A stretch of 64,000 nt of DNA from an uncultured Gammaproteobacteria bacterium (GTDB lineage: Bacteria > Pseudomonadota > Gammaproteobacteria > JACCXJ01): positions 288,001 to 352,000 of the forward strand of contig CAVXTM010000016.1 of assembly GCA_963764725.1 (NCBI GenBank), read 5' to 3'. The notes beneath the pieces were generated by a model. The model worked only from the letters and a program-made list of their open reading frames with translations, ran no database searches and was not told the origin of the DNA. Below, in pieces: positions 21,786 through 26,498 of the stretch; position 1 is the stretch's first letter; each line of letters opens with the position of its first letter. A program made the position numbers and the translations under genes.

Positions 21786-21835
21786 GGGGTGCGACAATTT
21801 GTCGCATTTTAAAAGGCGATCGCCATTGCTATGAT
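21786..21835 (+). promoter_or_regulatory. RegA/PrrA-like box plus promoter pointing into an unannotated gap
   Basis: GGGGT-GCGACAATTTGTCGC-A-TTTTAA-17bp-TATGAT with TGn extension. Confidence 0.65.
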
Positions 21836-21881
21836 TGCCGGGGCTGAAGGACAGAAGATGCGAATATCGCAAAACGGAGAA

Positions 21882-21911
21882 GGAAAGAAAGGCCGCGCCA
21901 GAGGCGCGGCC
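21882..21911 (-). terminator. Rho-independent terminator downstream of csp
   Basis: GGCCGCGCC-TCT-GGCGCGGCC followed by TTTCTTTCC on the minus strand. Confidence 0.65.
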
Positions 21912-22027
21912 ATAAAGCGCGGTGGTGAGAGACGAGTGTCGAGGCCGCTAAACCTGAAAGACGCTCGAATCTTCCACTACGTGCCGGAGCCCTACGGCCT
22001 TGCTAGGTCGCTGGCCCTATGCACAGC

Positions 22028-22510
22028 TTAGGCTACCTTCTTGACTTCCCGCACCAAGGCGGCGCAGGCCTCGGCACAGTCCGCACAGCTCTGGTGCTTG
22101 GAGGCGTGTTTGCGGCATTCCTTTTCGCAGTCTGCACAGACCGCGGCACACGCGTTGGCGAACGCCTTCGTGTGTGCCGAATTACTTGCGCTCAACTGTG
22201 CCAGGGCATTGCACGCCGCGATGGTCTCTTGTACCGCGACCGCGCAGCTCGCGAGCGACGTGTCGCCGCCCTTGAAGGTGTTGATGCAGTGATTGAGGCA
22301 AGCGTGCCCCTTGGCCATGCAGGTTTCGGCGGCCATCATGAGGCCGCTGTACTGCCAGCTATGGTGATTGGCCGCCGCGAAGGCTCGCCCGGTGCCGGTC
22401 ATGAGCGCGGCCGCGCCCACCGCCGTGGCGCCGGCGAGGAATTTCCTGCGCGCGGACTGACAGGGGGCGTCACCGGTCTCCGGATGGGTATTTGAATGTA
22501 ACTCGGACAT
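22028..22510 (-). CDS. csp1: Tat-exported Cys-rich four-helix-bundle copper storage protein (Csp1/Csp2-like)
   Basis: Twin-Arg SARRKFL signal; 12 Cys in the mature part, many in CxxxC/CxxC spacing; RBS AAAGGAG. Confidence 0.85.
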   Translation of the reverse strand: MSELHSNTHPETGDAPCQSARRKFLAGATAVGAAALMTGTGRAFAAANHHSWQYSGLMMAAETCMAKGHACLNHCINTFKGGDTSLASCAVAVQETIAACNALAQLSASNSAHTKAFANACAAVCADCEKECRKHASKHQSCADCAEACAALVREVKKVA

Positions 22511-22705
22511 ATCAGCTCTCCTTTCAATATGGATGGATAAAGGGTTGCGCAGGCGTGTAACCCCAGTGTCGCTAGGGTGTTGCGGCGCTTTCGGTTGATG
22601 GGATGGCGGAGGAGAGCTGATTTTCCTGCCCATCCCGGACGAAAGCGTCGCACCTTCTCGGTACGCGGATCGCACGGAGGCGCAAACCCGCCAGGGATTA
22701 TATCA
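22511..22705 (-). promoter_or_regulatory. Extended -10 promoter and ~180-nt structured csp leader with anti-SD
   Basis: TG-A-TATAAT at 22705-22697; 22610-22621 is perfectly complementary to RBS region 22511-22522; long hairpin 22581-22652. Confidence 0.55.
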
Positions 22706-22772
22706 GACCGCTAGATCTCTGGATACTATTTATCTTCTATCTTCGCCGGGCGGCGTTCTGATGGCGCTGCGC

Positions 22773-24326
22773 TCAACGAACCAACAGATCGGTACCGTAC
22801 CAGCCGACGATGACGTCCCGGTAATGTTCGGCCTTCCGGGTTTGGAGTCGTTCGAGGGGATTGAAATTGTCCGTCAGAGTCACGCCTTGGGTCTCGTTCA
22901 CCGCGACGATCCGGTTCTTCAGCCACGCTGCTTGCTCTGCTCGGAGTCCCGGGGAGTTGAGGTCGATGGGTCGGCCAGCCGCGAGGAAGATGAAGTCGTT
23001 GAAATCCTTGCCGGGTTCGGAAATAAAGACCGAGTGATGGGGAAACACCTGCGCGATGGTGCGCCCGACGGACGCCAGGGCGGCATTCTGGCCGCCCTCC
23101 GAAAAGGCCACGAAATTAAGAGCGAGAATGCCCTGGTCTGACAGGAGCCCGCGCAGTTGAGACAAAGTCTCGACGGTCAAGAGGTGCACCGGTTCCGATC
23201 CTCCGGTGAAGCAATCATGGATGATCAAGTCGTAAGGGCCGGTCAAGCGGCCGATTTCATAACGTGCGTCACCCACCATGGCTTGGCCCGTGGGTTCAAA
23301 CCCAAAGTATTCGGACGCGGCGCTCGCCACTGCCGGATCGATCTCCAAAGTGTCGGTCACGATCCCGTAGCGGTCACGCAGCGTCGTTGCCATATGGCCG
23401 GCGCCCTGGCCGATGAGCAAGGCCCGTGTCATGTTGGGCGCCAAGGCCGGAATCAAATGAACGATCTCCTGGTAGGTGAGCCGGTTGTCGCCACTCGATA
23501 TGCTGGCGGCGCCGATCGTCGAAGCATCCGACATGAGAAGACGAAGATCGCCTTCTCTTTGATCAATCACCCGCACCCAACCGTACAGGCTTTCCCGCTC
23601 GGAACGGATTTGAAAGGGTTCCCCGCCGGTGTAAGCACGCCCCGCGCCGATGGCTTGGGGCAGCAATCCGATCCCGATCGCGGCCAAGAGAACACTGGGC
23701 AGCACGGCGGCGGTTCGCCCCAAGCGCTTTTGCTCATAGATCGCCACGGCCACGGCCAGCGCGAGCAGAGCTATACCCAGACCGATCAGGATCTGGCGTG
23801 AGCCCACCAAGGGAAACAGAAAGAAGCCCAATACCAAGGTGCCGACAACGCTCCCGAGCGTACTGACGGCATAGATCGAGCCGGCGCTGGAACCAACGCC
23901 TTCCAAGCGTGAGGTCGCGAGCTTGATGGCATAGGGCCCAACCATGCCTAGCATAGTCAGACTGGGCGAGAACAACACCAGCGCGCTCACGAAGGCGCCC
24001 GCTCGCAGGCCCAAAGGGTCGGTCGCCATCAAGACCGGCCGGGTTACCCACGGGATTAAGAGTGTAAACAGGGCCGCGAGTGAAATGACGAGTGAAAGTC
24101 CGGTGCGCTTCGCCCGGTCAGCCCACCGGCCGCCGGCAAAATAACCAATGGCAAGCGCGATCAACGCCACGGAAATCAGCGATGACCAGACGTAGAGGCT
24201 CACGCCGTAGAACGGGGCGATGATGCGCGTACCCAGAAGCTCGATTACCATCACCGCCGCTCCGGTCAGGAACACGGTCAGATAAAGCCCGGCACGTTCG
24301 TAGACGTGCAGTGGTTTGTAAGACAT
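22773..24326 (-). CDS. Fused membrane domain/spermidine synthase-like SAM-binding protein
   Basis: About 7 TM (VMVIELLGTRIIAPFYGVS, GSIYAVSTLGS), then LLIGQGAG, LEIDP, GDAR, YDLIIHD, LTDNFNP. Confidence 0.85.
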   Translation of the reverse strand: MSYKPLHVYERAGLYLTVFLTGAAVMVIELLGTRIIAPFYGVSLYVWSSLISVALIALAIGYFAGGRWADRAKRTGLSLVISLAALFTLLIPWVTRPVLMATDPLGLRAGAFVSALVLFSPSLTMLGMVGPYAIKLATSRLEGVGSSAGSIYAVSTLGSVVGTLVLGFFLFPLVGSRQILIGLGIALLALAVAVAIYEQKRLGRTAAVLPSVLLAAIGIGLLPQAIGAGRAYTGGEPFQIRSERESLYGWVRVIDQREGDLRLLMSDASTIGAASISSGDNRLTYQEIVHLIPALAPNMTRALLIGQGAGHMATTLRDRYGIVTDTLEIDPAVASAASEYFGFEPTGQAMVGDARYEIGRLTGPYDLIIHDCFTGGSEPVHLLTVETLSQLRGLLSDQGILALNFVAFSEGGQNAALASVGRTIAQVFPHHSVFISEPGKDFNDFIFLAAGRPIDLNSPGLRAEQAAWLKNRIVAVNETQGVTLTDNFNPLERLQTRKAEHYRDVIVGWYGTDLLVR

Positions 24327-24353: not shown

Positions 24354-25337
24354 TCAGGGTTCATCGAGCACGGCAAAGGCCGGCGCATCCCGCGCGCGGC
24401 TCGGTGGTGCCACGCATCCTTCGCTACTGGCTGGCGCCGCGAGCGAGCCACCGGCTTCACCGTGCACGTCTACCCAGAAATGCGGCAAACCCATGCCCGC
24501 CAGCCATGCCGGGCCGGCAGCCTCCTTGAGCATGGCAATCGTCGAGGCACTGCCCGCGATGAGACACAGATCGCCAACTACGCTGACCGACGCCAAGTGG
24601 CGCACCGGCCAACCGGTTTTCGGGTTGAGGATATGACCGTAACGCACACCATCGAGCACGATGCAACGCTCGTAGTCACCGCTACTGGCAAGCCCGCCGT
24701 GGTGCAACGAGACCGTTTGTATGAGGGCCCCCGGACGACGGGGATGGCGTATGCCTATCCGCCACGGGTTGCCATCCGGTCGCGGCCCGATGACCTTGAT
24801 GTCGCCGCCTAAATTGACGTGGCCGGATCGGGCGCCGGCCTCGTAGCATAGCGTTGCTGCCCGATCGACGGCGTATTCCTTGACGACACCGCCGAAATCA
24901 ATCTCCATGCCCGGCAGTGGAAATTCGAGAACGGGAGGTGTCCAGCGGAGCCGGTGCCACCCGACCTTGCCGAGTAGGCTTTGGATCTGCGCCCCATCGG
25001 GCAGCGCGCCTCGATCGAAGCGCCACGCGCGACGCAATATACCAGAGCTGATGTCGAAGAGCCCATCGCTCTCACGGTAACAGGTCGCGGCGTAATTGAG
25101 CAGCCCAACAGTCTCTTGGTCTACGGAGATGCTTCCCCCACGGGATGCCACGCGATTGATCTCCGATAGAAAGCTGTCGCTGCGAAAGCGCGAATAACGC
25201 GCTTCCAGCCGGTCGACTTCAGCGATGGCGATGCCCGCAATGCGCTCGGCTTCTGCATGGCTTGTGGCAAAGAGCTGGATCTCACAGGGAGAGCCCATCG
25301 CCTTGAAAGCCAAGCGGTAAGACCTCATGCCGTTCAT
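24354..25337 (-). CDS. apbE: FAD:protein FMN transferase
   Basis: AMGSPC, SDGLFDIS, IDFGGVVKEYAVD, NLGGD, ASSGDYER, HILNPKTG. Confidence 0.92.
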   Translation of the reverse strand: MNGMRSYRLAFKAMGSPCEIQLFATSHAEAERIAGIAIAEVDRLEARYSRFRSDSFLSEINRVASRGGSISVDQETVGLLNYAATCYRESDGLFDISSGILRRAWRFDRGALPDGAQIQSLLGKVGWHRLRWTPPVLEFPLPGMEIDFGGVVKEYAVDRAATLCYEAGARSGHVNLGGDIKVIGPRPDGNPWRIGIRHPRRPGALIQTVSLHHGGLASSGDYERCIVLDGVRYGHILNPKTGWPVRHLASVSVVGDLCLIAGSASTIAMLKEAAGPAWLAGMGLPHFWVDVHGEAGGSLAAPASSEGCVAPPSRARDAPAFAVLDEP

Positions 25338-25493
25338 GTTCAAAACCACGTTCGCGGTCGATGTAGCCCGGGTCGAACGCAGCCCCGCCCCGCCGCGGTG
25401 AGTGCCCGCGACTAGTCCCGGTCGCTCAAGCGGTGGCGGAACGTAGCTACGCCACATATTCTCAGGCACATGACGCACGCTAAACAAGGCCCA

Positions 25494-26498
25494 TCAAAAC
25501 GTCAGGCTGAAGCTCACGAACAGTGAGCCGTCACGTTCGAGCTGGAACCCGTTGAAGTCGTCCTCCACGGGTTGCAGCCACTCGACGCTCAAACGGTTGT
25601 CCTTAAGCCCGGCGATCGGAATCTCGGCGCTGAGCCCGAAGCCCACGTCCCAGAACTGCCCGCCGTAGTTCTGCGGGAAGTCCACCGGGCTCAGTTCCGA
25701 GTGCACGTCGTTGAACTCGCCCGTGATCTCCCCTTGCGTCGTGTAAACGCCGCGCACCGAGGCGGAGAGCCAGTCGAACAGGCCGATGCTTCCCCAGGCG
25801 GTGGCCTGGAACTGATTGCCCAACGCATAGCCCGACTCGTTCGCGTTCTCGAGGCGATCGATGCCGCTCACTTGCCCCCCCCACGACCAGCGCCCCCACG
25901 CGCCCGTGTAGGTGAGGTTCGGCAGCAGATCCCAGGTGCCGCTGCCGAGCTGCATGCCATAGTGATAAAAGCCTTGATCCGTTTGATGGCTGCGTCTGAG
26001 CTGCTCGTCGACGGAGCCGGTCGGTGCGCTCACGCCCAGAGCCAGGTGCAGGTGATGTCCGGGCACATCCAACAGTTTGAAGAGCGCGTACATGGAGGTG
26101 TCACCGACGCCGCCCGTGGCTTCGGAGTGGAGCACATGGTGCTGTTCACTGCTGTCGAGCTGAGCGCCTTCGAGGGCCTGCATCGACATCTCCATGTCCA
26201 CGAACTGCGGCATGAGCATCAGGTTCAGCCAGTCGGTCGGGGCGTACATGATGTCGATCATGTGCATGTTCATGGTGTGGTCGACCGGCTTCACTTTGCA
26301 CGGCACCGAGCCACAGCCATTGCTGGTGATGACGGCATCGCCGACGGCGTCCGAACCGCGCAGGATGTTGCCGTCCTGACTGTGGTACATGTAGCGGTAG
26401 TCGACCATGAAGTCGCCGGCCTCGGGCAGCATGTGGTCGAGCATGACACCCGCCGGCGCGTGGCCGTGGGCGTGCGACGTGGCTATCGTGGGCGTCAT
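25494..26498 (-). CDS. His/Met-rich outer-membrane beta-barrel, probably the C-terminal half of the DUF3570 protein
   Basis: HAHGHAPAGVMLDHM, HTMNMHM, MQLGSGTWD, C-terminal Phe; no signal peptide of its own. Confidence 0.7.
   Translation of the reverse strand: MTPTIATSHAHGHAPAGVMLDHMLPEAGDFMVDYRYMYHSQDGNILRGSDAVGDAVITSNGCGSVPCKVKPVDHTMNMHMIDIMYAPTDWLNLMLMPQFVDMEMSMQALEGAQLDSSEQHHVLHSEATGGVGDTSMYALFKLLDVPGHHLHLALGVSAPTGSVDEQLRRSHQTDQGFYHYGMQLGSGTWDLLPNLTYTGAWGRWSWGGQVSGIDRLENANESGYALGNQFQATAWGSIGLFDWLSASVRGVYTTQGEITGEFNDVHSELSPVDFPQNYGGQFWDVGFGLSAEIPIAGLKDNRLSVEWLQPVEDDFNGFQLERDGSLFVSFSLTF

Follow-up and report, generated by a model that had tools for sequence, protein, structure and literature searches.

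The roughly 180-nt leader of the copper storage gene csp1, on the minus strand of the window (the whole 64,000-nt stretch of DNA analyzed here), is on balance probably a cis-acting element of translational control, in which the Shine-Dalgarno sequence (SD) would be sequestered in a pseudoknot with the apex of an upstream hairpin. The leader is a new, narrowly distributed structured element. We recovered six distinct full leaders from three lineages, each directly upstream of csp1, and the carriers of leader and gene are uncultured soil and cave bacteria. As is to be expected of an SD-sequestering leader, an upstream complement of the SD is kept in the relatives with compensatory change, more weakly in L033 and L181, the two loci of the third lineage; going by energy estimates, this pairing would probably lower translation.

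The gene itself (22028..22510, minus strand, with its AUG at 22510-22508) encodes a 160-aa, Tat-exported four-helix-bundle copper storage protein. Its product matched TIGR04401 in a profile search (119.6 bits, cut-off 100), resembles the solved Csp1 (PDB 5fjd, E 8.5e-19) and carries a twin-arginine motif, RRKFLAGA, at residues 21-28; on all three counts it is Csp1. On the 3' side of csp1, a terminator-like hairpin with nine G-C pairs and a U tract (tail TTTCTTTCCT) occupies 21891..21911 on the minus strand, whereas no terminator was found within the leader. Over the same hairpin, Rfam gave a weak match resembling SorX (21885-21940, minus strand; 19 bits, cut-off 46.6), which most likely reflects the terminator shape and nothing else. 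On its other side the leader region adjoins a gene for a fused MFS/spermidine-synthase (24326-22773, NF037959). A 334-aa protein with a His-rich N-terminus (HAHGHAP; 25494-26498, minus strand) is encoded two genes upstream of csp1, next to an ApbE-family gene (24354-25487). Neither Pfam nor NCBIfam gave a match for this protein at the thresholds applied; judging from its ApbE/csp1 neighborhood, it may be related to metal handling.

To locate leaders we combined scans guided by the protein, searches of genomes and a covariance model, R1. The window's genus (g1) is represented by the window, L001 and L002, with metagenome contig L011 identical to L002; L003 belongs to a second genus (g2) of the same family, and L033 and L181 to another family of the class. 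Within the window's family R1 matched 5 of 15 genomes, four of them strongly (E 1e-29 or better) and one, G009, partially (2e-6), and gave weak matches alone (E 0.03 or more) in the rest. Strong matches were located solely just upstream of csp1, and R1 never found a second leader copy in any of the 15 family genomes. Across the class, 21 of 400 scored genomes had a Csp1-family match; R1, run over 18 of those loci, matched L050 and L053 alone, both from the family of L033 and L181, L053 being the same as L181 over the 400 nt compared. We also examined 12 Csp1 loci of other families, in 11 of which a start could be chosen; upstream of these 11 genes no complement longer than 8 nt was found, the longest being 4-8 nt in each.

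Pattern searches of all species representatives gave a similarly narrow picture: the exact-core pattern returned five records, every one already known, and among 80 fetched matches to a loose P1a pattern, which are largely GC-rich chance matches, R1 recovered known loci only. A metagenome scan by Csp alignment yielded four loci, with the leader intact in L011, broken in L012 and deleted in L013 and L014. Flanking genes are unlike between lineages and homology starts at the -10 box, so the conserved unit consists of promoter, leader and csp1. The narrow distribution limits present claims.

Read 5' to 3' on the minus strand, the unit begins with an extended -10 promoter element, TGATATAAT (22697..22705), which agrees with the TGnTATAAT motif of the preliminary description and has counterparts at the same place in the relatives (TGATATACT in L001 and L002, TGCTATAGT in L003, TGGTACCAT in L033 and TGGTAGCAT in L181). 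The promoter went unlisted in a consensus scan because its -35 hexamer is poor. Transcription would start near 22692-22690, which gives the predicted leader length of ~180 nt. The leader domain is closed by a helix, P0, assigned from the minimum free energy (MFE) fold together with covariation for its 5' strand (GGGUU, a bulged U and GCGC; 22680..22689) and the alignment for its 3' strand (GCGCAACCC, 22542..22550). Four of the nine P0 pairs changed on both sides and 87% of cells were paired, the third-lineage alignment being uncertain here. Next to the 5' strand of P0, the MFE fold contains a small, poorly conserved 5' hairpin (GUGCG/CGUAC, 22661..22675); L003 has a different, stronger hairpin at this site, and block identity between the window and L003 is 20/50.

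The long hairpin that follows is built from three helices. Its base, P1a, pairs UGCGACGCUUUCG (22640..22652) with CGAAAGCGCCGCA (22581..22593), strands that also form a 13-nt inverted repeat at 92% with one mismatch, which is A.C in the window and a G-C pair in the other five leaders. P1b, placed by the hairpin fold and by covariation, pairs GGGAUGG (22636-22630) with CCAUCCC (22606-22600). In the apex helix, P1c, AGGA (22627-22624) pairs with UCCU (22613-22610) in the MFE fold; this AGGA is a mimic of the SD and a rival of the real SD for UCCU, and it is retained in every lineage with its register shifted (AGGA in the window, GGAGC in L003, GGAA in L033). The anti-SD, AUCAGCUCUCCU (22610..22621), contributes UCCU to P1c and holds its remaining eight bases in the 10-nt apical loop, so that four of its 12 bases are paired. 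Its partner, AGGAGAGCUGAU (22511..22522), is made up of the SD and spacer and abuts the AUG, with AAAGGAGAGCUGAU directly 5' of the start codon. A repeat finder returned the two arms as a 12-nt inverted repeat, 100% complementary and 87 nt apart, as the preliminary description had claimed, and the position of the anti-SD at the apex of a long hairpin with GGGAUGG/CCAUCCC and AGGA/UCCU helices was likewise seen in the MFE fold.

Between the hairpin and the 3' strand of P0 lies P2, a variable 3' hairpin region placed from the MFE fold (CCCUAG/CUGGGG in the window, 22561..22577), in which just 66.7% of cells were paired in the six-leader alignment. Parts of the stretch occur in 20 sequencing runs, in each case with fewer than half of its words. 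Of four runs examined, the RNA run X16 yielded nothing; among the variants listed for metagenome contigs, most are located in the P2 region, and among those listed for the DNA contigs of runs X1, X2 and X6 none falls in 22511-22522 or 22610-22621. The csp frame is open upstream to a GTG at 22675 in the window (215 aa) and, in L001, up to an ATG within stem P1b (201 aa), which makes an annotation trap; an N-terminal extension of the protein was rejected on the ground that the upstream open frame is absent in L003. A leader peptide or CruR-like upstream ORF was rejected as well, the candidate ORFs differing in frame, length, end and start context and having no properly spaced SD.

The hairpin (22654-22578, about 73 nt) folded at -33.8 kcal/mol with a z-score of -4.65, and none of 200 shuffles was equally stable. 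It was found in all four lineage representatives folded, at z -4.1 to -5.7 with 0 of 200 shuffles as stable in each, and the full 206-nt leader did not stand out (z -1.95, with 10 of 200 shuffles doing as well). When the six leaders were aligned under guidance of the model (A7), the nested helices comprised 38 pairs, seven of them changed on both sides; 87.6% of their cells were paired, against 38.5-48.2% when slid, and 0 of 500 shuffles, which ignore relatedness, reached the covariation score. P1b, with all of its cells paired (100%), contributes two double-changed pairs out of seven.

The pairing between anti-SD and SD behaves in a similar way. Six of its 12 pairs are invariant and three changed on both sides (five cells), 84.7% of cells were paired, compared with 37.5-51.4% once the partner was slid, and the covariation score was reached by 3 of 500 shuffles, which again ignore relatedness; the complementarity first described in the window is conserved across the six sequences. 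The window's genus pairs AUCAGCUCUCC with GGAGAGCUGAU and L003 pairs GUUGGCUCUCC with GGAGAGCCAUC. Four spacer positions differ between the two, of which three are matched by loop changes and one becomes U.U. The helix measures 12 bp in g1 and 9-11 bp in g2, and is weaker in the third lineage, where L033 has 8 bp with a bulge or wobble, L181 has 6 bp plus a G.G mismatch, and one change is uncompensated. The covarying pairs connect loop bases with the spacer between SD and AUG, and there is no other obvious constraint on either. Since six sequences in three lineages provide few events, the covariation is suggestive and not proof.

The core of this match, CUCUCC:GGAGAG, may arise incidentally from a purine/pyrimidine apex helix combined with an ordinary SD. 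Base composition alone could yield it. On a rival reading the hairpin would act in mRNA stability or processing, as a 5' protective stem-loop or an RNase III site, with an anti-SD match of no regulatory role. The extent of the pairing speaks against such a by-product, as the complementarity reaches 8 nt into the loop in the window's genus and 5-7 nt in the second genus, and those loop bases covary with the SD-AUG spacer. The hairpin does have features that a processing signal would explain: RNase III substrates resemble its ~24 bp helix with internal loops, and the 11 bp of P1a that are invariant on both strands are better explained by a protein that recognizes them (e.g., a nuclease) than by mere pairing. 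It lies, however, away from the 5' end of the predicted transcript, and we regard a purely stabilizing or processing role as decidedly unlikely.

P1a deserves separate description. Nine of its 13 pairs never vary, and it is without covariation because its sequence is almost invariant; the stem (GCGGCGCUUUC / GAAAGCGCCGC; 22580-22593 and 22640-22652) keeps 11 bp unchanged on both strands in all six leaders, at a divergence where silent sites are near saturation. This invariance exceeds what pairing alone would require. As a neutral yardstick between the window and L003, 26 of 51 four-fold sites of csp are identical, and against this the identity was 12/13 in the 3' strand of P1a, 10/13 in its 5' strand, 5/7 in each strand of P1b and 13/18 across the segment that starts immediately before the SD and ends with the AUG. 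Identity was 0/3 in one internal loop and 3/6 in another; the 5' region (20/50) and P2 (9/32) have diverged, and a 3-nt CCG between P1c and P1b is the sole invariant unpaired stretch among the junctions and loops.

The match itself carries less weight. Among 3983 SD-bearing candidate starts, five, csp included, had a complement of at least 12 nt to the last 20 upstream bases within 240 nt, a crude control confined to the window's own genome, with an SD-like motif required and perfect complements counted. The csp complementarity is therefore rare, not unique, and alone not decisive, and the credibility of the pairing comes from conservation rather than from the match. The other four starts, C13 (-) 31170, C12 (+) 309406, C11 (-) 418520 and C18 (+) 170676, where the minus-strand coordinates (C13, C11) count along the reverse complement, each carry, no more than 240 nt upstream, a perfect complement of 12-17 nt to the SD region; these may be additional leaders that mask an SD, or else coincidental matches inside coding sequence.

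That the csp complementarity, of a kind present at five of 3983 starts, arose by chance, or that it belongs to a functional RNA of the plus strand, is extremely improbable given conservation with compensatory changes across three lineages and a fixed place on the strand of csp1, with the conserved -10 box on one side and the AUG of the gene on the other. R1 scores 30.8 bits on the plus strand in the window, but a near-palindromic hairpin gives such a score by construction, and no promoter or gene lies nearby on that strand. Pair counts are near equal on the two strands (170 vs 166 of 189 cells), and a strand call from G.U pairs was abandoned for want of discrimination. The earlier caveat in favor of a plus-strand RNA, which cited several mismatches that are G-U pairs on the opposite strand, proved to rest on a single A.C specific to the window. 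We favor the sense strand from the position behind a conserved -10 box and the involvement of the SD.

The csp1 loci of this group are often damaged, at different sites. In L013 and L014 everything is gone from the -10 box to about codon 47, that is, the leader and signal peptide (positions about 640-700). Unrelated DNA replaces the 5' half of the leader in L012, with the break at GCUCUCC (about 590-600); this may be a chimeric contig. L034 has an N-terminally truncated csp, without signal peptide or leader. The gene reads as frameshifted in L033 (about 690-705) and in L181/L053, in different places, and also in L008 (genome G009 alone), where the 5' hairpin arm is absent; the frameshifts could be assembly errors. 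The weakest SD pairings coincide with broken csp, which, in small numbers, fits relaxed selection.

How the two pairings of the anti-SD relate to each other was addressed through their energies. Against the proposed masking, MFE folding without pseudoknots leaves the SD about half unpaired (probability unpaired 0.46-0.55). Forcing the anti-SD:SD helix as a nested helix destroys the hairpin, at a cost relative to the MFE of +5.0 kcal/mol in the window, where P1a has its A.C mismatch, and of +11.0, +8.7, +13.8 and +20.5 kcal/mol in L001, L002, L003 and L033, respectively. A nested two-state switch was rejected as the main model at this cost. The competing folds of the preliminary description survive in part: the AGGA/UCCU apex helix does compete, whereas the whole hairpin, at +5.0 to +20.5 kcal/mol, is not a simple alternative. 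Opening of the apex only, with the lower stems kept, gave -12.7, -12.3, -12.3 and -8.2 kcal/mol in the four intact-csp1 loci and -5.1 (L033) and +2.2 kcal/mol (L181) in the frameshifted-csp loci, values that are RNAup-like, with the opening cost taken from the ensemble and pseudoknot topology and loop entropy left out. The apex helix P1c (4-5 bp) is worth -2.3 kcal/mol in g1, and in L003 the value is -6.6. The anti-SD:SD duplex reaches -20.4 kcal/mol, and it counts against the reading that a perfect 12-bp helix of this kind is far stronger than typical regulatory helices. Given the nested cost and the favorable apex-only opening, a long-range pseudoknot masking the ribosome-binding site (RBS) is the likeliest architecture, with the apex helix as its sole competitor.

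The mechanism that we propose for SD sequestration would work as follows. P0 would close the leader domain, from which the long hairpin P1a-P1b-P1c would rise to present the CU-rich anti-SD at its apex, a sequence that we take to resemble the anti-SD tail of 16S rRNA. The anti-SD would pair with the SD and with all of the spacer as far as the AUG, leaving the lower stems intact, and the resulting long-range pseudoknot would hide the RBS. Against it would stand P1c, in which an SD mimic (AGGA or GGAG) would hold part of the anti-SD, and in the window's genus eight loop bases could act as a toehold for the SD spacer. With P1c a weak competitor and the loop a toehold, the resting state is predicted to be off or strongly damped. 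Expression would need the apex helix to be stabilized or the anti-SD to be captured by something. We infer that a trigger exists, and we think that a trans-acting macromolecule is likelier in this role than a metal ion.

One version of such control, a cis-inhibited leader opened by a trans factor, would have either an sRNA acting on the anti-SD loop or a CsrA-type protein acting on GGA motifs; we hold it to be possible, if unlikely. Anti-antisense activation by an sRNA is known for the rpoS leader, and here the anti-SD is displayed in an apical loop, a favored site of RNA-RNA contact. The longest other genomic complement to the apex is 14 nt, near chance, although sRNA pairing can be shorter, and in the genome-wide search for trans complements to the apex nothing stood above chance and no opener of the SD helix was found. 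For a CsrA-type protein, every one of the six leaders keeps two GGA motifs, one on the 5' side of the apex and one in the SD, and CsrA is encoded in the genome (89.6 bits). About 100 nt separate the two sites, however, and the usual GGA spacing for a CsrA dimer is shorter. An SD helix this strong suggests that something opens it actively, yet neither an sRNA of this kind nor such binding is known from these uncultured bacteria.

A true riboswitch, in which the P0/P1/P2 domain would bind a metal ion (e.g., copper) or a metabolite and shift the balance between apex helix and SD, is improbable. Its appeal is plain, as a closed multi-helix domain with covariation lies beside an expression platform that overlaps the SD, and the downstream gene stores copper. 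The conservation pattern is the wrong one, however. Between the window and L003, the junctions and internal loops, where conserved pocket nucleotides would be sought, are the least conserved parts and the helices are near-invariant, the reverse of the usual aptamer pattern; variable junctions and internal loops argue against a ligand pocket. A regulatory helix of -20.4 kcal/mol would also be too strong for typical ligand energies to tip. Rfam 15, searched at E up to 10 over 21800-23200, gave six matches, all far below threshold (best 19 bits vs 46.6) and none sensibly placed on the leader; no family, metal riboswitches included, reached threshold, among them NiCo/czcD, yybP-ykoY, M-box, ROSE, fourU, SAM-II and preQ1-II, in keeping with the initial impression that the element belongs to no recognized family. 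The earlier reading as a translational riboswitch or attenuator thus holds as far as a conserved structured leader and SD pairing with compensatory changes are concerned, and finds no support with respect to a ligand pocket.

Csps are strongly up-regulated at high copper according to a review (PMC7558416); in a 2026 transcriptome of Methylosinus trichosporium OB3b, csp1-3 transcript levels were reportedly similar under all conditions (PMC12811070). Flat transcripts in OB3b leave room for post-transcriptional control, with the proviso that this is another organism, without this leader. PMC9426467 states that no riboswitch has been described for Cu or Zn and reasons that free copper is too scarce for RNAs that bind with micromolar affinity. 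In the literature we found no description of a csp leader RNA or copper riboswitch. The suggestion that the leader is possibly metal-responsive did not gain from our results: nothing indicates a tie to metal sensing, and nothing points to a metal or small ligand. We consider it very improbable that this is the first RNA switch in copper homeostasis, one by which atmospheric methane oxidizers would adjust synthesis of a periplasmic copper store to their copper status, directly or via a copper-loaded factor, with the leader toggling between the SD-mimic apex helix and the 12-bp SD-masking pseudoknot.

Csp1 is thought to supply copper to particulate methane monooxygenase. The leader-bearing relatives include MAGs labelled upland-soil-cluster gamma, a group of uncultured bacteria that consume atmospheric methane. 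If the RNA gates Csp1 synthesis, it would offer a new handle on copper budgeting in such cells. Post-transcriptional control of copper genes is barely documented and, according to a 2022 paper, was "yet to be characterized" apart from the upstream ORF described there (PMC9426467). If true, the proposed mechanism would also be a compact natural toehold-like design made of an SD mimic, an anti-SD and the SD.

Several known systems resemble the csp1 leader in part. The SAM-II and preQ1-II riboswitches form an initiation-blocking pseudoknot between an upstream loop and the SD region, with a short competing helix as the other state, and the csp1 leader is like them in that a loop is predicted to pair with the SD while a short helix competes. 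It differs in the length of the helix (9-12 bp against their few bp) and in the ~73-nt hairpin that presents it, as well as in having loops and junctions that are not conserved, no Rfam match and no known ligand. Leaders of the rpoS type are long, self-inhibited 5' UTRs that are opened by sRNAs; similarly, a csp1 segment ~90-100 nt upstream is predicted to pair with the RBS, and activation would need its capture. In the csp1 leader, by contrast, the inhibitory segment sits at the tip of a stable hairpin that forms independently and has an SD mimic next to it; there is no sequence relation to the rpoS type, and no sRNA was identified. With the metal riboswitches (czcD/NiCo, yybP-ykoY, M-box) it shares a multi-helix leader on a metal-homeostasis gene, and none of them was listed for it in the Rfam scan at E up to 10. 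RNA thermometers (ROSE, fourU) also mask the SD through base pairing in the leader, by short imperfect helices that melt near growth temperature. The csp1 duplex, perfect and at -20.4 kcal/mol, is unlike these and has no Rfam match; we rejected a thermometer, the duplex being too strong. A further parallel is CruR, which PMC9426467 describes as a copper-responsive upstream ORF; it is translated into a DUF2946 protein, bears CXXC and RAPP motifs and works by way of Rho. The csp1 leader has no upstream ORF conserved in frame, length or start context, and what it has in common with CruR is putative post-transcriptional control of copper-related gene(s).
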